NCBI GenBank assembly: GCA_030295235.1
Contig: AP026123.1
Span: 2,480,001-2,544,000 of the forward strand
Length of the DNA: 64,000 nt
Source: Fistulifera solaris
Taxonomy: Eukaryota
Reading direction: 5' to 3'
Shown here: piece by piece, positions 4,850 to 54,681 of the stretch
How the letters are laid out: each line of letters opens with the position of its first letter
Numbering within the stretch: the stretch's first letter is position 1
The notes under the pieces: generated by a model
Told to the model about the DNA's origin: nothing
Databases searched by the model: none
Seen by the model: only the letters and a program-made list of their open reading frames with translations
Translations under genes and position numbers: made by a program

Positions 4850-5586
4850 CTTTTCTCACGAAGTAATGATATTAGATACGAAGTAGATTTGGTTGTTGCT
4901 TTGCAAAAGTTGTCGGAAAAAAGCGCACCCGTTTTGTCCTTGAGGTTTGTGACGTGTGACGTGGTTATCGGTTGTCCGTTGCACATACCGGAAAGACGAG
5001 AAGACAAATTTGCATTGTGCAAAGTGCAGAGAGAGTTCTGCTCATCAAAAAGAATAAAAGGGAATTTCAAAGCATAGATTGACGAAATGCAACATAGTGA
5101 ATACCAAAAGACCTGTCAAAGGGCGCTTTACGAATCATTGAATCTTTTAGGCCCGAAACAAACAAATATTCATAACCGAAAAGCAGTCGTAGTAACATTC
5201 CTCCTACATTTTTAGATAAATAAATGCAAAATCAACAATCCGCAAGTTTCTGGGTATTTCTTTAGGGCAGTCAAAGGGAAGGCGTGTCCTGCACATGATG
5301 CGTAAAGTATTTTGCTGTGCATAGCTATCCCAGGTCGGTCTCGGGAAAATACTTGATTCATGACTAAACGCAGTCTTGTAAAAGTGAGACTACAATTGAT
5401 AAGATAGTCATCTATAAATACCGGAAAGACACTCTGACATCGGGCATCCGCCTCGTTTTCATCTGCGGTAATATTCCATGCGTGAAAAACATCGCATTGA
5501 ACGCTCATCATTGTTTTCGATGTAAACATCCATCGACGAACTATTGCACTGTTAATCATTCAATCAACCCAAAAAACCTACATTTC

Positions 5587-8634: not shown

Positions 8635-9104
8635 TACCATTCCGCTCATACCGTTCGCTCTATTTGACAAACCGGGTTTTTGGTTCTTGCATTGTAGTAA
8701 CTTAGATAAAAAGAATTAAAACTTGATTTGATTCTATCAAAGCGGAATGCTTATGATATTGACCTCGTACGACTTCTATTTCGTTCACTGGCTTGACCTA
8801 GTCTGCGATACTATGTCTGCGTATTTTACTACCAGTATGAACCCAAGTGTTGTTCGTATTTCACCACGACTGCTCTCAGTCATGAGCAGATTGTAACTGT
8901 CACTAAGGGCGCTAGTCTGGTCGAAAGTGTACATATGACGGTTCCTATTTAACGGGGTCGATCGAAGCGACCTAATTTACTTATGTCGAAAAACTGATAT
9001 TAGAAGGTGGTTGGCGGTTGATGATATTTTTTCCGCAACGCTTGGCAAAGCCAACCTCATTTTTCATTTGTCGCAATCCATGCAACACGGATAAGATCAG
9101 GATC

Positions 9105-9830
9105 ATGTCTTCCTCAAGTCATCTTTGTGCAGTTTGTCTTCAAAAGGCGAAGTACCGTTGCTCGCGCTGCCAAGAGACTTGGTATTGCTCGGTCGAACAT
9201 CAACGACAAGATTGGAAGTCGCACAAGGCGTCCGTCTGCTTGTCAGAAGATCCTCGTGTGCTCCAACTGATCGAAGCGATCTCGTGTGACAATAAAGCAG
9301 TAGTGAAGAAGTTGGCTTCCATCCCAGCTGTATTGAATGGAAGAGTCTCGTCGTATAATCCTACAGGACAGCCGCGAAGCTTGCGCAAGAAATGGTCTCC
9401 TTTGCATGAATGTACCCGAGTCGCCAACCTCACAGTGCTCAAGCTACTCTTGAAACAAAAACCCAATCTCGAAGTCGAAGACGAGACTGGAGCAACGCCT
9501 TTGTTTGTTGCAGTCAGTGTTAAGGCACATAAAGTCATTCGCACTTTACTCAATGCAGGAGCCGATCCAGATGCCACAACCATGGAAGGCTGGTCGGCGT
9601 TGGTGATTGCCGTTCGTAACTCCGACATTGAAACGGTGGAGACGCTTTTGCAAAACGACGTTGATGTGATGGGTAGTCGCGACCCTCTGGGACGTAACGC
9701 CCTAGACGTAGCTGAAAAGGTCGCCGCCGGTCGAGGGATGGCTTTCGGACTTGGCAAGACGACTTGGGAAACGTGCGAGAATGCGCAGGATATTGTGGAT
9801 ATGCTCGTTGGTCACTTGGATGATTGGTAG
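9105..9830 (+). CDS. MYND zinc finger + ankyrin-repeat protein (copy 1)
   Basis: CAVC..CSRC..WYCS.EHQ..DW..HK..C plus SPLH/TPLF/SALV ankyrin repeats. Confidence 0.9.
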   Translation: MSSSSHLCAVCLQKAKYRCSRCQETWYCSVEHQRQDWKSHKASVCLSEDPRVLQLIEAISCDNKAVVKKLASIPAVLNGRVSSYNPTGQPRSLRKKWSPLHECTRVANLTVLKLLLKQKPNLEVEDETGATPLFVAVSVKAHKVIRTLLNAGADPDATTMEGWSALVIAVRNSDIETVETLLQNDVDVMGSRDPLGRNALDVAEKVAAGRGMAFGLGKTTWETCENAQDIVDMLVGHLDDW

Positions 9831-10417: not shown

Positions 10418-11131
10418 ATGCCCATGGAACGCCCTCTTTGTGCCGTTTGTCAGCAAGAAGCGACAGAACGATGCTCGCGCTGCCAAGAGACCTGGTATTG
10501 CTCAGTCGAACATCAACGACAAGACTGGAAAGAACACAAGGCAACGGTCTGTCTCGCCGAAGATCCTCGTGTGCTACAGTTAGTGGAAGCGATTACGAAC
10601 AATAATAGAGCCGTGGTAGAAGAGTTGGCGTCTATTCCAGCCGTGTTGAATGGCAAAGTTGCGTCGTATACTCCTAACGAACGAACTTTGCAGAAATGGG
10701 CCCCATTGCACGAATGTGTTCGATCTGCCAACCTCGACTTGCTTCAACTACTGCTACAAAAGCAACCCAAACTCGAAGTCAAAGACGATGACGGAGAGAC
10801 ACCCTTGTTCATTGCCGCCAGTGCTCGAGCGCCCCGCATCGTGCGCGCTTTACTCACTGCGGGCGCCAATCCGAACGCTTGCGGACAAGATGGATGGTCG
10901 GCCTTGATGATGGCGACACGGAATGCGGATTTGGAAACCGTACAAGCATTCTTTGATAGTGGTGCTGACGTCTATGCGGGTCATGACATGTTTGGTCGTT
11001 CCGCAATGGATTTCGCACAGGCATTGGCCACGGGTCAAGGATTACATTTTAGAGAGGGCGAGGATTTTGAAGAAGTCTTGGAGAGGGCGCGCCAAATGCC
11101 GGCTTTGTATCAGGCCTATTTGCGTGCATGA
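10418..11131 (+). CDS. MYND zinc finger + ankyrin-repeat protein (copy 2, tandem paralogue)
   Basis: Same architecture, clearly similar to 9105-9830. Confidence 0.9.
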   Translation: MPMERPLCAVCQQEATERCSRCQETWYCSVEHQRQDWKEHKATVCLAEDPRVLQLVEAITNNNRAVVEELASIPAVLNGKVASYTPNERTLQKWAPLHECVRSANLDLLQLLLQKQPKLEVKDDDGETPLFIAASARAPRIVRALLTAGANPNACGQDGWSALMMATRNADLETVQAFFDSGADVYAGHDMFGRSAMDFAQALATGQGLHFREGEDFEEVLERARQMPALYQAYLRA

Positions 11132-11413: not shown

Positions 11414-11500
11414 CGCGGACAAGGTGGAATCGGACCACTACGCCTCTCGGCGTCCACGGATTTGAAGTCCGCGCCCAACACCAGTCAGGATCATGCCCGC
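11414..11500 (-). tRNA. tRNA-Sec (selenocysteine, anticodon UCA)
   Basis: Minus strand GCGGGCATGATCCTGACTGGTGTTGGGCGCGGACTTCAAATCCGTGGACGCCGAGAGGCGTAGTGGTCCGATTCCACCTTGTCCGCG. It has a 9-bp acceptor stem, 6-bp D stem, CTTCAAA anticodon loop, long variable arm, 4-bp T stem, G discriminator and a following TTTT terminator. Confidence 0.95.
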
Positions 11501-25094: not shown

Positions 25095-25402
25095 GAGATT
25101 GCGGGTAATTAAGAGAGAAAGCGATACAATTATGCTACTTTTACAACACAGCGAGAGCAAAGAAAAAAATGAAACGGAAAAAATGCGTGGTAAGGGCTGG
25201 TTTCGCGAAAAGGAGCTCCGCGATAGCACGCGCATGTACATAAAAAGACTATAGTGCAGGTTGATTCACGAAAACATTTTGATGACAAAAACCGCAGGCT
25301 GCGCTGAACAGGCTGGGGTGTCAATCGTTGTAATGTAAACGAGTAACCAAGATATTGTGAGATTATTATAATTTTAAAGAGGCGGATCCAATGGTGTGAA
25401 AG

Positions 25403-25980
25403 TTATTGTCATGCTGGCTCGGGTTGAGGCGTAATTCAAGAAAGAAAAAACATGTCGGTGGCGTCAATATACTCGAAAGCGGACATCTAAAGCATGTCGA
25501 CGTTCTAGCGGTTCAATTTTATGCAGTTTCCTTCTATTACATGATTGTAATGCACTGCTTGCAAATTGAACTGCTACTTTGCCTCTAGGGGTAAGATACA
25601 TGCACATAAACGATGCTGTGAAATCACGTCGCATTGATGTCGCGGTGTCGATCGCCACGCTACTGACGAATAACCATGATATTCTAACATTATAAATAAA
25701 AGATAAGAAACGTTTTAATGATGTGTTTATTATTGTCATATTCGCTAGAACTGAGGCGTAATACAAAAGAAGCAGAGCATCCCCGCGACGGAAAAATACT
25801 CGAAAGTGGATATCTCACGTATTTTAGCGTTCTAGCGGTTCAAATTTTCACAGCTGTCTTTCCTTTAAATGTTTTTGATTTAGTGGTTTCAAATTGAACC
25901 GCTGGATTGTCATTTAGCAAAAGATACAAGCGCATGAATTGTCATTTCGCCATGGTCGTCGTGTAATTACCGCGTTAAGA
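25403..25980. repeat. Diverged direct repeat pair (period ~327 bp), each copy with an internal inverted repeat
   Basis: Shared TTATTGTCAT, TGAGGCGTAAT, ATACTCGAAAG, CGTTCTAGCGGTTCAA, AAATTGAAC, AAGATACA blocks starting at 25403 and 25730. Confidence 0.8.
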
Positions 25981-26120: not shown

Positions 26121-26555
26121 TTTTACTATAGGCCAAAGTGTTGCCCGTGTTTACCAAGACTGCATTTCAGTCATGAACCATATTTTTCAAGCCACTTTAT
26201 GGTCGCTAAATTCTGATTGTTGGACTCAATGTGTGAAGTTTACTGCCTTCGCTGCCTCAAGAAGCATTTGCAGTGCGTGCCTTGACTCATCATGTCAAAA
26301 TGCTGTGCAGATCGTTGACTGCACTATTTACTATAGGCTCAAAGTGAAGACGACTTTTACCACGACTGCATTTGGTCATGAATCATGGGTAACTAAGGTT
26401 TTACAATACATTGTATACCAAGCCTTCGTGCGTTCGGCTCGCTTGATAAACTAGACTTCTTTTCCAAACCATACAAACACCTTCAGTAGCATTTGCAATG
26501 CATGCTTCAATGATTCATCGTGTCAAATGGATTGCAGACCGTGGAGTGCAGTAGT
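26121..26555. repeat. Diverged direct repeat pair (period ~206 bp)
   Basis: TTTACTATAGG..GACTGCATTT..GTCATGAA..AGCATTTGCA..TCATC.TGTCAAA..TGCAGA at 26121 and 26327. Confidence 0.8.
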
Positions 26556-36154: not shown

Positions 36155-36506
36155 ACTATGTTGAGAAAAGAAGGAGAAGTAGTTACGAACTTGTCATTAT
36201 CACGCGAGAAAGACAAAACAAAACGAAGGTTGTCGCGTTTTTTCTGCGTGCTTTTTCTTTTTTCGTGCCGGTGCGCGGTAACGTCCTTAGTGCGCGGTGC
36301 ATGAATCGAATAAACGGTAAACCCACAACAAGAGGTTCCGTTTGGCGTCTCTTGCATCCGTCCAATGTTGTCAGATTGAGGGTCTGGACGTCAATCAGAG
36401 TGGCTTATATATCATGGATCGGGGGTAGAAATACGACGTGATTGGGATGGCTCTGTGGTTCAATTCCACAGTACGTTAGTATTTTTTTAAAACATAATGT
36501 CATATC

Positions 36507-36909
36507 ATTATAATTTCTGGTAAACCAGGTCGCAACAATGATGATTCTGAGCTACTTGTTAAGAGATTTCTTTATTTTCACGTTGAAAATCCGAGGATCG
36601 ACACCTTGAATTTTTACTATAAAACGGAGTGTTAGTTTACCCCATCCAAGACTGGATTGTACAGCAGTCATGAATCGAACAACAAAGGGTTCCGCGTTTT
36701 GCGTCTCTCGTATCCATCCATTTTCATTCAACTGCGAATACAATTATAATTTCGGGTAAACAACGTCGCAACAATGATGATGATTCTGAAATACTTGTTT
36801 AAAGTTTCTTTTATTTATACGTTGAAAATCCGAGGATCGACACCTTGAATTTTCACTATGAAACGGAGTGTCGGTTTACCCCATCCAAGACTGGATTGTA
36901 CAGTAGTCA
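36507..36909. repeat. Direct repeat pair, ~165-bp unit, period ~237 bp
   Basis: Near-identical ACGTTGAAAATCCGAGGATCGACACCTTGAATTTT and TTTACCCCATCCAAGACTGGATTGTACAG blocks. Confidence 0.92.
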
Positions 36910-37059
36910 AGTAACGCAATTGCTTGATTTATCGCGATGCCTTTCACAATAACAAAACGTCGCCTTTGACATCAAAACAAAACATTGCCTACTCCATCAC
37001 CATCCTTTGCTCGTCCTACTATACTAGATGAAATCAATAAACAGGTGTTTCTGCTTCGT

Positions 37060-37290
37060 GAATAATCTCTGTGTGACTCAAAGCACCGATGTTTCCAGAT
37101 TTTCTGAAACTTGCACAAAATCTCTGACTGATGCAAAACATCGATGATTCTTCCAGAATTTCTGGAACGTGAATGAATTTCTGTGTGACGGAAAAGCTCC
37201 GATTCCAGATTTTTGGAGCTTTGCACAAAATTTCTGTTTGACGCAAAACACCTATTCCAGATTTTCTGGAACGATCCAAAAATTCTGTAA
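37060..37290. repeat. Short array (~4 units, ~52-57 bp) of the TTCCAGAWTTTCTGGAA satellite family
   Basis: Four palindromic cores separated by GCACAAAA..CTG.GTGAC..AAAAC spacers, as in 50930-52480. Confidence 0.85.
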
Positions 37291-48678: not shown

Positions 48679-49257
48679 ACGTTCGTTGATCCGGCATTGT
48701 GGTCTAGCTAGCGTGTTGCGCTGTTTACATTTCACCATGCTATTCATCATGCTAGAGTCTAGAATTTCGGCTTGGATGCACGCACCCTAGCTATAACACC
48801 AAATTTAGTGTTTCGTCGGTGTTTTCAATAAGTGATAAGGCAGAACTGAATAATCATGCATGTCTTAGCACTACCAACACCCTAAATAATGATGGATAGA
48901 CATTCGTCCAACTTCGACCAAGTTCTCGACTTAATCTGGATTAGGTTCCCAATCGCTCACTCACGAGTGTATCCTTTCCGCTCTTCTGATTGGTCCGCGG
49001 AGACATCCACCGTCGACATGCGTTCGAGGGTTTGAGCGTATCTTGGGGGAGATAAACTTTTGAAAGTTGTACCGGACTTGCGTAGAAATCTACGACACGG
49101 GAATAGCGCTGCGGCCGATCAATCATGAAAAAACACCCGATCCGTTCGACACACAAAATCGTTTCGCACTCATTTTTGCTCGTCTTTTCTCTTTTCCATC
49201 CTTCTCATCTTGATTATGTCACACGGTTTTGTCGTTCCCGCGTTTGTCTTTCAGCAG

Positions 49258-49911
49258 ATGGCCGTCTTGGAAGAATGGAATGCCGTTGCGGACGAGTGGG
49301 ATGAACGCGACGGCGGTCGGGCCCAGTGGGTCTATCATTTGGTGAAAAAACACGTGCCCATCACACCCGACATGACCGTCCTCGACTTTGGTTGTGGCAC
49401 CGGCTTGATTGCCGATGCATTGCGTCAAGACGTAAAAAAGGTCGTCGGTGTGGATGCGGCCGTGTGCATGGTGGAAGTCTGTGAAGAGAAAGTGGAATTG
49501 CAGAAATGGAAGAATGTGCAAGTCTATCGTGCCTTGTTGGGTGATCCGAGCGATGAAGACACGCAAGAGATTCTACGCAAATACAAAGACAAGTTTGATG
49601 TGATTATTGCAAATTCCGTGCTGCTTTCGGTCATCCCCGAGACGATCGGAACGACCATGTCGGCGCTAGGTTGGCTTCTCAAGCCGAATGGCTATTTCTG
49701 TCATACCGAGAAGCCCGGTGACGAAAAGGGCTTTACAACGGAAAAAGCTCAGATTTTCTACGAAAAAGCCGGGCTAGAGATGGTTTCGACGAGCGTCGTC
49801 ACGTGCGATATCCAACCGGCGAGCGATGTCTTTTTCGGCATTGCACAGAAACGTTTCGGTCGCAAGCATTGCTGTGAATTTGAAGTGCCCTGCATCGACT
49901 ATTCCGAGTGA
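49258..49911 (+). CDS. Class I SAM-dependent methyltransferase
   Basis: VLDFGCGTG motif I, VVGVD, KFDVI, LLKPNG. Confidence 0.88.
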   Translation: MAVLEEWNAVADEWDERDGGRAQWVYHLVKKHVPITPDMTVLDFGCGTGLIADALRQDVKKVVGVDAAVCMVEVCEEKVELQKWKNVQVYRALLGDPSDEDTQEILRKYKDKFDVIIANSVLLSVIPETIGTTMSALGWLLKPNGYFCHTEKPGDEKGFTTEKAQIFYEKAGLEMVSTSVVTCDIQPASDVFFGIAQKRFGRKHCCEFEVPCIDYSE

Positions 49912-50114
49912 TTATTCATTTGTCAAGGTTTGATAGAAAACTATAAGGTATTTATCATTACATAGAGCTTCATTATTTCAATTCCATTCATCCATTCAAT
50001 CTCTCCGCAGCTGCGGCTGCGGGGATGGTGTCACCGCATTCACAGAAAATCTGTGGGCTTGCAGTCTTCACCTACCCAGAAAATCTTTGAGAGTGTTGCG
50101 TATTTACGTATTGT

Positions 50115-50572
50115 GATTCATGACTCAAGACTGAAATGTAGTCGCGGTCTCTTGGAACCTACAGAATGCGACTATAGTAGATACGGAAGACAACTCTTTT
50201 CGCAGGGCTCTTCGACGTGAAAGACAATGACATTTGATGCCAACGCTACCAAAGACGATGAAATAGCAACAACGACACATGGAGCTCAAGGAATTGGGAG
50301 AAAGATCGAATGGTAGGCAGCATTGTCGCTCAAAAGAGTATTGATTCATGACTCCTCAAGACTGAAAAGCAGTCTCGGTATCCTAGAACCTACAGAATGT
50401 GACTATAGTAAATACGGACGACGACCTTTTCGCAAGGCTCTTCGACGTAAAATAGAGGGATGTGTAATGAAAACGCTGCTTAAGACTATTTATAGCAGTA
50501 ACAACAAATGGAGCTCAAAAGATAATGCTGAACGATCGAATGGTAGGCAGCATTGTCGCTCAAAAGAGTATT
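50115..50572. repeat. Tandem direct repeat pair (~228 bp); third diverged copy at ~52520-52712
   Basis: GATTCATGACT..GACTATAGTA.ATACGG..GGCTCTTCGACGT..GGAGCTCAA..GATCGAATGGTAGGCAGCATTGTCGCTCAAAAGAGTA repeated. Confidence 0.9.
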
Positions 50573-50603
50573 TTTTATTCAGTCTCCGGTTGACGAAACT
50601 GGA

Positions 50604-50889
50604 GGGGCGAGGTTCGATACGGTGGTTGGTCGATCTTGGCGCCCAGCGCCGTAGATGAGAGTCTTGAGACGATCGGTGGTCCCCGGTCGTGCCTGAATCA
50701 AATAGGAGTCCCTCTGTTCGCATGATTCACATGTTTGACCTGGCAGCGGTTCGTTGTTAGGTGGATTTCATCCGTTGTCCATTGGGTCAGTTGTGTTTCT
50801 CTAACTTGTATTAGGGATTCGGTTCTGTTGTAGGATAGGACACAACTCGGCTGATCTGGGCTCATCGTCACGTTGAATTTCCTCGCTCC
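50604..50889 (+). ncRNA. Putative structured non-coding RNA (~290 nt), RNase MRP/P-like or novel
   Basis: Ends pair as an interrupted rod enclosing five hairpins; frequent G-U pairs work only on the + strand; no credible ORF. Confidence 0.45.
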
Positions 50890-50929
50890 AAGCTCCAACC
50901 AAAACAAAAAAACAGGAGAGAAGGAAGGA

Positions 50930-52480
50930 CCGCGATTCCAGAATATCTGGACCAGTCCCACAGTATTTCTGGTTGAGGGAAAAAGCGCGGATTAAAGAAA
51001 TTTGCAAATTTGCACAAATAGGCTGTCCTTCTCAAAACACTTAGTTTTCAAATTTCAGAAATGTCCACAGCATTTTTATATAATCCAAAACACCGAATCC
51101 AGAATATTTGGAACGTCCACGAAATGTCTGTTTTTGAACAAAAATAACTGGCCCAGAATTTTTGGACCAGACACACAGAATTTCTGGTTCATTAACCAGG
51201 ACTCCAGATTCCAGATTTTCTGGAATCTGCACAAACTGGCTGCTACTCTCAAAACGCTAGTTCAAGCTTATCATGAATGTCCACAGCAATTTATGAGCCA
51301 AAACAGTGATTCCAGAACATCTGGAACGCGCACGAAATGTCTGTTTGACTCGAAACAATAGGTCCTGAATTTCTGGACCAGTAAAACAGAATTTCTGGTT
51401 GACACAAAACCACGGATTCCTGAATTTCTGGAATTTCCACAAACTGGCTGTTATTCTCAAAACACTAGTTCTTGACTATAATGAATGTCCAAAGCATTTT
51501 ATGAGCCAAAACACCGAATCCAGAATATTTGGAACGTCCACGAAATGTCTGTTTTTGAACAAAAACAACTGGCCCAGAATTTCTGGACCAGTAAAACAGA
51601 ATTTCTGGTTGACACAAAACCACGGATTCCAGAATTTCTGGAATTTGCACAAACTGGCTTTAATTCTCAAAAACTAGTTCCCGAAGATCGCGAATGTCCA
51701 CAGCATTTTTATATAATCCCAAACATCGATTCCAGAATATCTAAAACACGCACGAAATGTCTGTTTGACACGAAACAACAACTGGTCCAGAATTTCTGGA
51801 CCAGTCACACAGAATTTCTGACTGACTAATCACGGATTCCAGAATTTCTGGAATTTGCACAAACTGGATTTAATTCTCAAAAACTAGTTCCCGAATATCG
51901 CGAATGTCCACAGCATTTTTATATAATCCCAAACATCGATTCCGGAATATCTGGAACGCGCACGAATTGCCTGTGTGACGCGAAACATCTAGTCCAAAAT
52001 TTCTGGTTGAAACAAAACCATGTATTCCAGATTTTCTGGAATTTGCACAAACTGTCTGTAATCGTCAAAGCACTAGTTCCAGCATATCAGGAATGTACAC
52101 AGCATTTCTAAATGACAACAAACACCGATTCCAGATAATCAGGAACGTGCACGAGATTCCTGTGTGATGCGAAACAACTGGTCCAGAATTTCTGGACCAG
52201 ATACACAGAGTTTCTGCTAGACACAAAACCACGGATTCCAGATTTTCTGGAATTTGCACAAACTGGCTGTTATTCTCAAAATGCTAGTTCCACAGCATTT
52301 CTGAATGACCACAAACACCGTTTTCAGAATATCTGGAATGGGCACAAAGTACCTGTGTGAAGCGAAACAACTGGTCCAGAAATTCTGGACCAGACACACA
52401 GAAGGTTTGGCCGACACAAAACCATGTATTCCAGAATTTCTGGAACTTGCACAAAAATCTCTGTGTGACGGAAAACAGCG
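50930..52480. repeat. Satellite array: ~52-bp palindrome-centred units in ~210-bp four-unit higher-order repeats (~7 copies)
   Basis: Recurrent TCCAGAATTTCTGGA cores; (G/C)CACAAA(CTGG) landmark at ~51011, 51229, 51437, 51647, 51857, 52045, 52256, 52449. Confidence 0.95.
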
Positions 52481-52956
52481 ATTTTGATAAGCATAGTAAA
52501 TTCTAGCCATTTTTATTTTACTGAAGTGCAGTCGTGGCGAAATACGGACAACATTTTGGGATAAAAGTAAATACGGAAGAAAACGTTTTGCAAGGCTCTT
52601 CGACGTAATTATAATTACGTTGAATACAGTTGCTGTTAAAGCCTATACCATGGCCACGACGACAAAGGGAGCTCAACAATACGCTGAACAAACAACATTT
52701 TGTCGCTCCAAAAATTTGATACATGACTGAATTGCAATCGTGGATAAGTTGCGATACACTTTAGACAATAGTAGCTGTTGTTGTCCTTCTTTTGAAGCGG
52801 ACGGAAATTCTGAGCTGTGTGAAAACTTCTCGAAAAACGAAAACATTCTAATTCCATTTTCCATCGTCGAATCAAGCGAATGAATCTCTTAAAATCAAGA
52901 GAGATGGCTTTATAAGTAAAAGGATACGACTAAAGAAAGGGTGTACAAGTCAGAAT

Positions 52957-54681
52957 ATGACAGAGAATGTGAAAGAAGGATCCTTTAACGATGATGTGAC
53001 ACTCATTCATGTGCCGTCGTCGCTGTTGGCACTATCGGTGGTGCCCCTTCTCGGGATTGCTATCGTATCGTATCAGATGAATCTGGGATTGGAAACTTCC
53101 ATCTTGTGGGGAACCGTACGATCCTTTGTGCAATTATCGATTTTGAGTGCTATCTTGCAGCCGATCTTTTATTGGGGACAAGACAACCCCTGGGTGGTTC
53201 TGGCGTACCTCTGTTTTATGGTCCTCCTCGCGTCCTATGAAGCAACCAGTCGGTCTCAATATCACTTTCAAAATGTCTTTACGTACATGTTCTTGGCCAT
53301 TGCACTGAATATCACTGTGGTTTCCTTGTTTGCCTTTGGGATTATTCTCAAACCACAGCCCTTATGGAATCCTCAATACGTCATTACGATTGTCGGCATG
53401 CTGCTGGGCAATGGCATTACGGGCATCAGTCTGGCGTTGAATAGTATTACCAGCAGTTTCGTCGAGCAACCCTTGGAAATTGAACTGCATCTTTCTTTCG
53501 GAGCTTCTCCAGTGGAAGCGTGTCAACGCCTCGTGCGCGATGCCGTTCGTGTCAGTACGACCCCCATGTTGAATTCCATGGCCGTCATCGGATTGGTGTC
53601 GATCCCGGGCATGATGACAGGACAAATTTTGGCGGGATCGTCGGTGATGGAAGCGGCTCGCTATCAACTGTTGATCTTGTATCTCATTGCGGTCACCGCC
53701 TTTGGGACGGTGCTCACTGAAATTTGGCTGGTGCAGAGAGTCGCGTTTGACCGGCAGGCACAAATACTGCGGCCTAATTTCTTTTTTCCAAAGCAATCTG
53801 CATTTCACGATATAAAATCATTTTTAGAAAATGTATTGAAACGAAGAGAGAATTCGCGTTTACAGCGTTTGAACGAAAACACCAATCTGCCCGACTACCG
53901 TTCTATTGATGATGCTTCAGCAAAAAACTCATCCGAAACGACGATTGAGTTTATACTAGCGGTGGATCGCGCTGCAGACGGTTGCGAAAATCAAACAAGT
54001 CTTTTGTCGTTTCAAGATCTGTCTCAAAGTATAGAACGGACAGAAAAAGACCCCTTACTGCTGTTTGACCGAATTTCACACACAATTCATTACGGTGATA
54101 TGGTGTTTGTCGTGGCACCCAGTGGTGCTGGCAAATCAACTCTCTTGCGAATGTTATCCAAACTAATTTTTACCGATGCAAGCAATCGTATCCTGTTGGA
54201 GGGACGTTCGACGTATTCCCCCACTGTTTGGCGCAAAAGGATCCGCTACGTACGCCAGAACAAAGTTGACATTCCAGGCACGCCTCGCGATATGATTGTT
54301 CGCATTTTGACATTTCAATCCTGGAAGATTTCGAAACACTCCATGCCATTTACAACGCAGCAAATGATCAGTTCGGTGTTACACTTTATCATCGAATTCG
54401 GCTTGGAGGAAGAGTGCATTGACAAATTGTGGAAGGACCTTTCGGGTGGCGAGTCTCAAAGAGTCTACCTTGCAATCGCGCTGGCATCACAACCCGATGT
54501 TTTATTGTTGGACGAAAGCACCAGCGCTCTCGACCTGGATTCCAAACTTCTGGTCGAACGCGTGCTTTGGAAAATTGTCTTGGAAAAGAGAATGGGTATA
54601 CTCTGGATCACGCACGATACGGAACAAATTGATCGAATGACTTTCCCTCCCAAAGCATTTCAAGGTAACTCTTCGAGTTAG
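52957..54681 (+). CDS. Fusion of UPF0014 permease (FetB/STAR2-like) and ABC ATPase (FetA/STAR1-like)
   Basis: PQYVI.IVGMLLGN, GLVSIPGMMTGQILAG..AARYQ; then APSGAGKS, LSGGE, LLLDE, ITHD. Confidence 0.9.
   Translation: MTENVKEGSFNDDVTLIHVPSSLLALSVVPLLGIAIVSYQMNLGLETSILWGTVRSFVQLSILSAILQPIFYWGQDNPWVVLAYLCFMVLLASYEATSRSQYHFQNVFTYMFLAIALNITVVSLFAFGIILKPQPLWNPQYVITIVGMLLGNGITGISLALNSITSSFVEQPLEIELHLSFGASPVEACQRLVRDAVRVSTTPMLNSMAVIGLVSIPGMMTGQILAGSSVMEAARYQLLILYLIAVTAFGTVLTEIWLVQRVAFDRQAQILRPNFFFPKQSAFHDIKSFLENVLKRRENSRLQRLNENTNLPDYRSIDDASAKNSSETTIEFILAVDRAADGCENQTSLLSFQDLSQSIERTEKDPLLLFDRISHTIHYGDMVFVVAPSGAGKSTLLRMLSKLIFTDASNRILLEGRSTYSPTVWRKRIRYVRQNKVDIPGTPRDMIVRILTFQSWKISKHSMPFTTQQMISSVLHFIIEFGLEEECIDKLWKDLSGGESQRVYLAIALASQPDVLLLDESTSALDLDSKLLVERVLWKIVLEKRMGILWITHDTEQIDRMTFPPKAFQGNSSS

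Follow-up and report, generated by a model that had tools for sequence, protein, structure and literature searches.

The locus lies within the window, by which the whole analysed stretch of 64,000 nucleotides is meant, between two protein-coding genes on the forward strand. The upstream gene matches several methyltransferase families (Pfam Methyltransf_12/31/23/25/11, E 1e-13 to 1e-10). The downstream gene joins two transporter domains (PF03649, E 3e-67; PF00005, E 7e-22), and its product is 85% identical to a Fistulifera solaris protein. In forward-strand order, the spacer between these genes holds two repeat units (R1 and R2), a 358-bp segment, a leader with an array of ~1.5 kb, a 27-nt tail, a diverged third unit (R3), and part of a fourth (R4):

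49216-49911, forward strand: upstream flanking gene, a class-I methyltransferase ORF of 231 aa, outside the repeat block
50115-50342, forward strand: R1, the first ~230-bp unit, which opens with a conserved head of ~70 nt
50343-50572, forward strand: R2, the second ~230-bp unit, in tandem with R1
50583-50834, forward strand: dispersed part of the middle segment, a truncated copy of a multi-copy element that is apparently transcribed elsewhere in the genome
50835-50937, forward strand: leader between the segment and the array, with no other copy in the window and low summed depth in the bins that hold most of it
50938-52455, forward strand: tandem array of ~7.3 higher-order units of ~210 bp, each with four ~52-bp monomers
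52488-52514, forward strand: tail of the dispersed element, 27 nt
52520-52712, forward strand: R3, the third unit, the head of which lacks its first ~10 nt
52715-52790, forward strand: R4, the fourth unit, head only, ~170 bp upstream of the ATG of the next gene
52957-54681, forward strand: downstream flanking gene, a 574-aa fusion of a UPF0014 permease with an ABC ATPase

All five blocks described in an earlier note on this DNA are present, far above chance expectation. Their layout, with two repeats, a segment, an array, and a third repeat copy in the same orientation, was confirmed by TRF, blastn, and shuffle scores. The block also occupies the largest gene-free interval of the window, as had been claimed, on a crude map of ORFs of at least 110 aa (49912-52956, 3045 bp). 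The lone ORF inside this interval (51485-51829) has no Pfam match, and a Pfam search of six ORFs within the block returned nothing better than E 0.24, so the block is without a coding signal.

The locus was compared with contigs from two DNA runs. The first, X1, is possibly the sample from which the window was assembled; the second, X2, is a metagenome of another study and may add DNA of other organisms. On the 5-kb stretch around the block, 686 X1 contigs and 674 X2 contigs were placed. Since contigs of the independent run X2 carry the same junctions with 0-3 differences per contig (50313-50563, 50797-51114, 51101-51415, and 52523-53181), the layout is not an assembly artefact. Two further sets, X3 and X4, were labelled as RNA by the guess of the tool, and a poly(A) end in X3 is the sole direct sign of RNA. 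Their contigs gave no cover over the array and most of the flanking genes, and no conclusion was drawn from this. Summed contig depth is read here as an indicator of multiplicity, not as a copy number, and is compared with a flank depth of 20.8 in X1. It reaches 3.8-11.8 times the flanks over R1-R2 and ~19 times over 50536-50869 (385-400). Across the array it varies within 2.5-51 times, and 52373-52706 stands at 20-31 times. The bins of 50870-51203, in which most of the leader lies together with the first unit of the array, reach just ~2.5-2.9 times (53-60). Every component of the block is multi-copy and belongs to a dispersed family.

R1 and R2 are 80.2% alike over 232 positions (blastn; TRF period 230, 1.9 copies), and the final 43 nt of R2 are 98% alike to the corresponding part of R1. 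R3 is more distant: its positions 52520-52689 are 67% alike to R2 over 174 nt on the same strand, with a local score of z = 27.6 against shuffles. The head start that is absent from R3 in the window is present in 25 X1 and 18 X2 contigs, which continue leftwards from 52520. R4 was matched by the head model at E 1.4e-13 and is itself in the training set of that model. The third copy that had been described as closing a bracket thus exists on the expected strand, but the partial fourth unit from ~52715 continues the run beyond it. A look-alike search of a sequence index gave no match to R1-R2 and none to the array.

The ~70-nt head of these units combines a hairpin motif with a 5-bp stem and a TATAGTA box; the hairpin motif is followed ~30 nt later by the TATAGTAAA box. 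The head was found at no fewer than four other intergenic places in the 64-kb window. A model built from R1-R4 only recovered four further heads at E ≤2e-4 and gave no matches in 20 shuffled windows. These places, together with a second array of the same monomer, are as follows:

5170-5219 and 5352-5397, forward strand: two heads ~183 bp apart, E 1.8e-4 for the first with the R1-R4 model and 1.5e-5 for the second with another head model, the training set of which did not include this second head
8842-8884, reverse strand: single head, R1-R4 model, E 5.5e-5
26177-26123 and 26383-26319, reverse strand: two heads ~206 bp apart, R1-R4 model, E 1.5e-7 and 2.8e-6
36300-36908, reverse strand: tandem pair of ~240-bp units with head-like starts, beside the small array
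37057-37288, forward strand: a further, smaller array built from the same 52-bp monomer (4.3 copies), at a distance of 14 kb from the main array

Head-bearing units in the other intergenic spacers of the window are mostly tandem pairs. The two units at 36300-36908 are 87% alike over 171 nt, with a ~130-bp insertion in one of them, and both were in the training set of the model that matched their head-like starts. Their bodies align with the R units no better than shuffles do (z ≤1.04), and the common part is the head-like start only. Each of the five head-bearing loci in the window is oriented towards the next ORF downstream, as is each of the two arrays.

The middle segment had been called unique. 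It is indeed single within the window, where blastn found no second copy of 50573-50930, but genome-wide it is a dispersed repeat, as its depth in X1 indicates. An array-less joint that connects 50834 directly to 52488 occurs in two X1 contigs and one X2 contig. The 27-nt tail beyond the array contains an AGTAAA hexamer (52495-52500). One X3 contig (277 nt, depth 1238.5) contains a part resembling 50614-50806, which is followed by 43 nt, by an exact match to 52488-52514, and finally by a T and 23 A; its poly(A) begins just past the equivalent of 52514, ~14 nt after the hexamer. On the upstream side, eight X2 contigs diverge from the window before 50583, with an agreement of 0.64 in their 30-nt consensus, and an X4 contig (420 nt) is identical over 50601-50669 and unlike the window in the preceding 351 nt. 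In its other copies, the segment follows different upstream sequence and lacks the array, and the element appears to be transcribed and polyadenylated elsewhere in the genome.

A coding reading of the segment was rejected. The 43-aa open frame at 50594-50722 has no protein relative at E up to 0.1 among longer proteins, and the eight substitutions between the window and X3 that fall on it, placed by hand, lie mostly at second codon positions. The suggestion of a structured RNA turned out to be weak. Folding is at most marginal, with z = -1.37 for the dispersed 252 nt and z = -2.32 for the full 358 nt, where 1 of 100 shuffles folds as well, and an Rfam search of 50540-50960 with E up to 10 was negative. 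The head and the segment were also compared by eye with the consensus features of Helitrons, hammerheads, and SINE A/B boxes, and these readings were dropped. No match to a 24-nt piece of the segment was found when metagenomes were scanned.

The satellite that had been described at ~1.55 kb is real and palindromic, with one correction: a 52-bp monomer lies beneath the 210-bp unit. TRF gave periods of 210, 189, and 193, and the autocorrelation of the array is 0.396 at lag 52 and 0.414 at lag 210 (mean 0.264, sd 0.026). Three of the four monomers in a unit start with a 15-23-nt palindrome around CCAGAATTTCTGG. With up to two mismatches and on both strands, the 15-nt palindrome has 40 matches in the window against 0.18 expected; 34 of them lie in the array (50938-52455), and the other six lie at 37094-37289. 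Compared with the 52-bp monomer of the second array, the quarters of the 210-bp unit score z 6.9, 10.5, and 12.3, and the fourth scores 1.3. The best-kept columns of the array are those of the b-palindrome and the following ~15 nt (0.90-0.94, against 0.57-0.8 elsewhere), and this conservation could reflect constraint rather than neutrality. The features of a dispersed higher-order satellite are present, namely head-to-tail monomers, a higher-order period, separate arrays, and multi-copy contigs.

Searches for relatives of the array were negative within their scope. Rfam listed no family at E up to 1 over 49000-54000, which includes self-cleaving ribozyme motifs in the repeat, and at the gathering score it reported only tRNA-Sec in the whole window. 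A ribozyme-bearing tandem repeat or retrozyme was set aside, as Rfam gave no ribozyme match. A metagenome scan for two palindromes 30-50 nt apart returned seven loci, none of them related; one had a blastn match of 135 nt at 67% (L004), and the array of another (L006) has an unrelated 54-bp repeat unit. A full-text literature search for the palindrome core found no paper.

Taken as a whole, the locus is probably composite, with three dispersed repeat families, unrelated to one another, lying together in the spacer that precedes the ABC-transporter gene. Neither the window nor the contigs yielded a full-length copy of any of these families. Its parts are multi-copy, array-less junctions and another upstream neighbour occur in other copies, the array has a higher-order structure, and heads are spread over the window. 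As to the order of events, the modes of movement of the families, and the growth of the array, we infer the following course. A run of ~230-bp head-bearing units, R1-R4, would have occupied the spacer first. A copy of the longer multi-copy element may then have landed between R2 and R3, removing the first ~10 nt of the R3 head. This copy would have been truncated upstream, so that only its last ~250 nt (50583-50834) and the 27-nt tail (52488-52514) were kept. A 1.65-kb block, made up of the ~100-bp leader and the array, could have been inserted or have grown near the 3' end of the copy. Unequal exchange or slippage during replication could then have expanded the array to its roughly seven four-monomer units of 210 bp. 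No part of the block requires a function at this site, and most probably it is DNA of a selfish or neutral kind, tolerated in a promoter-side spacer.

The region at 36.3-37.3 kb stands against such a patchwork, as it again pairs head-bearing tandem units with an array of the same monomer. The pairing of head units and array at this second locus hints at a non-random association that a patchwork does not explain.

Another explanation is that the array serves as a cis-regulatory platform, with the palindromes binding a dimeric DNA-binding protein that modulates the downstream gene and with the flanking repeats being incidental. Both arrays lie upstream of the next ORF (52957 and ~37488) and on its strand, and within the unit conservation is highest in the b-palindrome and the ~15 nt that follow. 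The TTCnnGAA cores of the palindromes resemble one half of the heat-shock-factor consensus site. There are, however, two arrays only, so their position and strand are possibly due to chance, and conservation of the palindromes can also be obtained through recent homogenisation or hairpin-templated repair. We know of no binding protein for the palindrome, and a regulatory array is regarded as unlikely. A broader version, in which the head and the 52-bp palindrome monomer belong as modules to an undescribed repeat system that lies genome-wide on the promoter side of Fistulifera genes, is likewise doubtful. Such modules would insert, or be retained, solely upstream of genes and in gene orientation, where they would supply promoter or factor-binding sequence.

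The earlier note had also proposed a non-autonomous mobile unit with an RNA module and a tandem array as its cargo. Mobile DNA was rightly suspected, since all three components belong to dispersed multi-copy families, but together they do not behave like a single unit enclosed by repeats of its own. A single element, TRIM/LARD-like or cargo-carrying, in which R1/R2 and R3 bracket the RNA module and the array, is improbable. Same-strand repeats do bracket the block, every part is multi-copy, and at the second place tandem units with heads again have an array of the 52-bp monomer no more than ~160 bp away. However, the bracketing copies are 67% alike, against 80% for R1/R2, and a fourth unit directly follows R3, so the "terminal repeat" amounts to a row of such units. 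The segment, in its other copies, is preceded by another sequence and lacks the array, and the bins of 50870-51203 stay at just 2.5-2.9 times flank depth. At the second locus, the units lie on the strand opposite to the array, and their bodies show no significant similarity to R (z ≤1.04). Finally, no inverted-repeat pairs surround the array, where ~1 would be expected. Joints such as 50350 to 52520 were considered as empty-site alleles and rejected, as their shorter side measures just 25-42 nt and the same picture would arise from any junction between two units at another genomic site.

A role in chromosome function, as a centromere or as an autonomously replicating sequence (ARS), is very improbable, since the block fails on minimum GC, on clustering of low-GC windows, and on the two F. 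solaris motif cores tested. In favour of such a role, the block is the largest ORF-poor interval of the window, the GC of its array (39.9%) falls inside the 36-42% range of the 16 putative F. solaris centromeres, and small-scale repeats were noted in three of these 16 (bioRxiv 10.1101/2021.11.10.468027). The Phaeodactylum premise behind the suggestion concerned the wrong organism, since the window comes from Fistulifera solaris or from a very near relative. For P. tricornutum, centromeres are reported to need at least ~500 bp at <33% GC and to be without repeats or conserved motifs (bioRxiv 10.1101/096016). The GC of the locus is 41% against 46.5% for the window. Along the GC profile, the lowest 500-bp values in the spacer are near 37% (36.8% at 52481-52980 and 37.4% at 51451-51950), and there is no low-GC cluster. 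Elsewhere in the window, several sites reach equally low GC. Of the 1278 windows of 100 bp in the whole stretch, 28 are at ≤32% GC; such windows number just one or two per 3 kb over 48-53 kb, with a window maximum of four at 54001. The array has a GC within the range of the putative F. solaris centromeres, yet shows no peak of low-GC 100-bp windows. The cores of motif 1 and motif 3 from the F. solaris preprint have no matches in the window at up to three mismatches; these are the cores of two of the three MEME motifs, and the third, motif 2, is highly degenerate. In addition, the array monomer recurs in a second array at a distance of 14 kb, and every part of the block is multi-copy.

Read as a compound of repeat families, the locus carries a caution: in this compact diatom genome, the longest tracts without genes can consist of stacked dispersed repeats and need not be centromeres, so that the rule of short, low-GC tracts in Phaeodactylum should not be transferred by eye. 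Three repeat families are documented here, for which no printed description was found for Fistulifera. The F. solaris assembly preprint goes no further than mentioning "highly repeated elements" of unknown function between some genes (10.1101/2021.11.10.468027). If the bias in strand and position holds genome-wide, the heads and arrays would be candidate repeat-borne promoter elements in an oil-producing diatom of biotechnological use.

Several known systems can be set beside this locus. With P. tricornutum centromeres it shares its shortness, its poverty in ORFs, and a GC somewhat below that of its surroundings; it differs in that it bottoms near 37% GC, consists wholly of repeats, and belongs to another organism. 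The putative F. solaris centromeres (10.1101/2021.11.10.468027) come from the same or a very close organism, overlap in GC, and have small repeats in some cases. Compared with these centromeres or an ARS, the locus has no low-GC peak and neither of the two tested motif cores.

Among mobile elements, the locus departs from a TRIM or LARD both in its terminal repeats (R2 and R3 are 67% alike, R1 and R2 are in tandem, and R4 follows R3) and in the recurrence of a whole element, as other segment copies have another left neighbour and no array and the depth at 50870-51203 is low. It also departs from a SINE. No head derived from tRNA, 7SL, or 5S RNA was found by ARAGORN or by Rfam over 50540-50960, the only ARAGORN prediction in the window being a tRNA-Sec at 11414-11500, and the tail ends in CCATTTTT and directly abuts R3, with no A-run. 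Polyadenylated non-LTR retroelements leave upstream-truncated copies, and solo LTRs are comparable. The segment resembles these as the 3' part of a longer multi-copy element, with a related copy that ends in poly(A) ~14 nt past AGTAAA. It differs in that the copy in the window has no 3' A-run and no clear target-site duplication, and no parent bearing a reverse transcriptase was seen among the window and the contigs.

For the array, a comparison is offered by Cg_HINE of the Pacific oyster, a non-autonomous Helentron element, in which short satellite-like arrays in gene-rich DNA are tied to mobile elements (PMC7492417). In contrast to the features given for it, the 11-12-nt subterminal inverted repeats are absent around the array here (0 pairs of 11 nt with at most one mismatch, ~1 expected by chance), no tandem repeat occurs in 50573-50937 (TRF, lowest score threshold 30), the left flank of the array is not shared with the second array, and the monomers carry long perfect palindromes within a four-monomer higher-order unit. 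The likeness to Cg_HINE lies in the central tandem array of satellite-like monomers and in the overall arrangement, in which a short array of a scattered monomer stands between repeated non-array flanks in euchromatic intergenic DNA.

The repeat block at 50115-52790 is a nest of lineage-specific repeats that is ordinary in kind. It fills most of the spacer 49912-52956, which is the longest ORF-poor interval of the window on a map of ORFs of at least 110 aa, in agreement with an earlier note that called it the largest gene-free interval. The layout described there, with two units, a segment, an array and a third unit, was likewise recovered by TRF and blastn:

50115-50342, first unit of about 230 bp (R1)
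50343-50572, second unit (R2), followed by a 358-bp segment
50583-50834, dispersed part of the segment
50835-50937, leader
50938-52455, tandem array
52488-52514, tail of 27 nt
52520-52712, third unit (R3)
about 52715, fourth unit (R4), present as its conserved start immediately 3' of R3

A 230-bp period was found by TRF at 50124-50572 (1.9 copies, 80% matches), and a 210-bp period from 50938 is followed by periods of 189 and 193 as far as 52455. In blastn, R1 and R2 are 80% identical, and the third unit copy (52520-52689, same strand) is 67% alike to R2, with a local alignment score 27.6 sd over shuffles. The 358 bp separating R2 from the array have no second copy within the window by blastn. 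The flanking ORFs are real genes: upstream a methyltransferase, downstream a fusion of a UPF0014 permease with an ABC ATPase. The downstream protein shows 99% identity to one database protein and 85% to a Fistulifera solaris protein; the window is from F. solaris or from a species very close to it, and the Phaeodactylum premise of the earlier note does not apply. Elsewhere in the window, two neighbouring ankyrin/zf-MYND ORFs (9122-9568 and 10435-10872) are 73% alike in DNA, suggesting that a gene was duplicated locally.

All parts of the locus are dispersed repeats. Contigs from public runs were aligned to 49200-54200; of the DNA-like sets, X1 carries the same organism label and is possibly the source of the assembly, and X2 is metagenomic and comes from a different study. 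The X2 contigs repeat the locus junctions with 0-3 differences per contig (50313-50563, 50797-51114, 51101-51415, 52523-53181), so the layout is real and common to an independent sample. These 5 kb attracted 686 contigs in X1 and 674 in X2. Summed contig depth is not copy number, according to the tool's own caveat, but the trend is clear nonetheless. In X1, against 20.8 in the flank, R1-R2 have 79-245, 50536-50869 has 385-400, the array has 53-1071 and 52373-52706 has 426-644. Most of the leader and the first array unit fall in the bins at 50870-51203, which reach only 2.5-2.9 times the flanks. The segment that had been called unique is single within the window only. No printed description of these repeat families was found; a poorly framed literature query on Fistulifera and satellites gave nothing relevant. 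The UPF0014-ABC gene has another copy among the X1 and X2 contigs, with about 85% nucleotide identity over 52988-54200, and the protein search gave relatives at 85% and 82%. Two subgenomes are described for F. solaris in a preprint (10.1101/2021.11.10.468027), and the second copy fits what is expected of an allopolyploid.

The segment and the tail together make up the 3' terminus of a larger, multi-copy element, as indicated by differing left neighbours, direct joints and a contig ending in poly(A). Left of 50583, other copies are unlike the window (8 X2 contigs, 30-nt consensus agreement 0.64), and a 420-nt contig of X4, a set labelled RNA, is identical over 50601-50669 and unlike the window over the preceding 351 nt. 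Two X1 contigs and one X2 contig join 50834 directly to 52488. A 277-nt contig of X3, whose RNA label is the tool's guess (depth 1238.5), starts like 50614-50806 with 17 differences and 10 gap letters, and continues with 43 nt, then 52488-52514 with 0 differences, then T and 23 A. An AGTAAA hexamer at 52495-52500 lies about 14 nt ahead of the start of this poly(A). Elsewhere, the parent element is apparently transcribed and polyadenylated; the window's copy is left-truncated and split by the 1.65-kb block of leader and array.

The structured RNA suggested earlier gained little from folding. For the 252-nt dispersed part, z was -1.37 on the plus strand, with 19 of 200 shuffles folding equally well, and -0.16 on the minus strand; the full 358-nt segment gave z = -2.32, with 1 of 100 shuffles as good. 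A G-rich stretch at 50601-50612 is complementary (8/9) to the CCTCGCTCC stretch of the leader at 50881-50891, itself similar to the motif at the end of the 230-bp units; this pairing makes up most of the modest signal of the 358 nt. Rfam gave no match at E <=1 over 49-54 kb or at E <=10 over 50540-50960. Over the whole window, at gathering score, it found the selenocysteine tRNA gene alone (11415-11500, minus strand; RF01852, 77.3 bits), in agreement with ARAGORN (11414-11500). A 43-aa open frame in the segment has no protein relatives, and ORFs within the block have no Pfam match better than E 0.24.

The 15-nt palindrome TCCAGAATTTCTGGA has 40 matches in the window at <=2 mismatches, both strands counted, vs 0.18 expected; the array holds 34 of them and 37094-37289 the other 6. 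Array autocorrelation is highest at lags 210 (0.414) and 52 (0.396), over a mean of 0.264 and an sd of 0.026. When quarters of the 210-bp unit were compared with the 52-bp monomer of a small array at 37057-37288, three aligned significantly (z 6.9, 10.5, 12.3) and the fourth did not (z 1.3). Together with the two lags, these matches define the array as about 7.3 higher-order units of four monomers. Its columns are best kept in the second monomer's palindrome and over the ~15 nt that follow (0.90-0.94 vs 0.57-0.8 elsewhere). The palindrome core matched no paper in a full-text literature search. The small array holds 4.3 monomer copies and lies about 150 bp from a tandem pair of head-bearing units of about 240 bp (36300-36908, opposite strand); this site resembles a divergent promoter.

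The first ~70 nt of the 230-bp units form a conserved head, which starts ...GATTCATGACTG and runs through a short hairpin motif to a terminal TATAGTAAA-like box. A profile of R1-R4 only (0 hits in 20 shuffled windows) found the first four of the following at E values from 1.5e-7 to 1.8e-4, and a wider profile gave the rest:

26177-26123, minus strand, head
26383-26319, minus strand, head
8884-8842, minus strand, head
5170-5219, plus strand, head
5352-5397, head outside the training set of the wider profile, E 1.5e-5
36.3-36.9 kb, two head-bearing units, both in that training set

The head start absent from R3 is present leftward of 52520 in 25 X1 and 18 X2 contigs. Up to 12 heads occur in the 64 kb, at five intergenic loci (5170-5397, 8842-8884, 26123-26383, 36300-36915, 50115-52790), mostly paired 180-240 bp apart; unit bodies are shared only among R1, R2 and R3 and within the 36.3-36.9-kb pair. 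All five loci aim at the next same-strand downstream ORF, where about half would be expected at random (p ~0.03, from the ORF map only), which is a lead rather than a finding. The head may represent either a transposon end whose insertion is biased or a promoter module carried by repeats. An intergenic tandem duplication (25339-25575 and 25666-25903, 70% alike, ~327-bp spacing) separates a DnaJ/zuotin ORF from the head pair at 26.1-26.4 kb.

Of the mobile unit proposed in the earlier note, the dispersed, multi-copy nature of every part stands on contig depth, but a single repeat-bracketed unit is unlikely. The bracketing copies are 67% alike vs 80% for the tandem pair, and the run of units goes on past the bracket as R4. 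Moreover, neither the R2-segment junction nor the array is common to other segment copies, and the low summed depth at 50870-51203 also speaks against a single unit.

The chromosome-function alternative, a centromere or ARS, is very unlikely on a GC floor of 36.8%, the lack of a low-GC cluster, absent motif cores and multi-copy parts. Phaeodactylum tricornutum centromeres, as given in 10.1101/096016, have at least ~500 bp under 33% GC, no repeats, and 100-bp windows of <=32% GC clustered within 3 kb. In contrast, the locus is built of repeats; its lowest 500-bp windows have 36.8% and 37.4% GC, and low-GC 100-bp windows number 1-2 per 3 kb (window maximum 4, at 54001). GC is equally low elsewhere, e.g., 36.4% at 36461-36960. 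For F. solaris, the subgenome preprint (10.1101/2021.11.10.468027) puts forward 16 putative centromeres, with 36-42% GC, and links three consensus motifs to replication. The cores of two had 0 matches in the window at <=3 mismatches; the third motif is too degenerate for such a search. Two arrays of the 52-bp monomer family lie 14 kb from each other, which, with all parts multi-copy, does not fit a one-per-chromosome element.

As a nest of repeats, the locus probably formed in steps: head-bearing units in a row occupied the spacer on the promoter side, and the polyadenylated element inserted a truncated copy between units two and three. Near the 3' end of this copy, an array of the 52-bp monomer, which occurs genome-wide, would then have been seeded and have grown by unequal exchange into four-monomer units. 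Two points lie outside this patchwork account, namely that heads are paired with a 52-bp-monomer array at a second locus in the window and that the palindrome is better conserved than the remainder of the unit. The Helentron non-autonomous (HINE) elements of the Pacific oyster are defined, in PMC7492417, by substructures that include inverted repeats at the array flanks. No inverted-repeat pair surrounds the array here, so these defining substructures are absent, and HINE elements are the nearest described analogue of arrays between repeated flanks.
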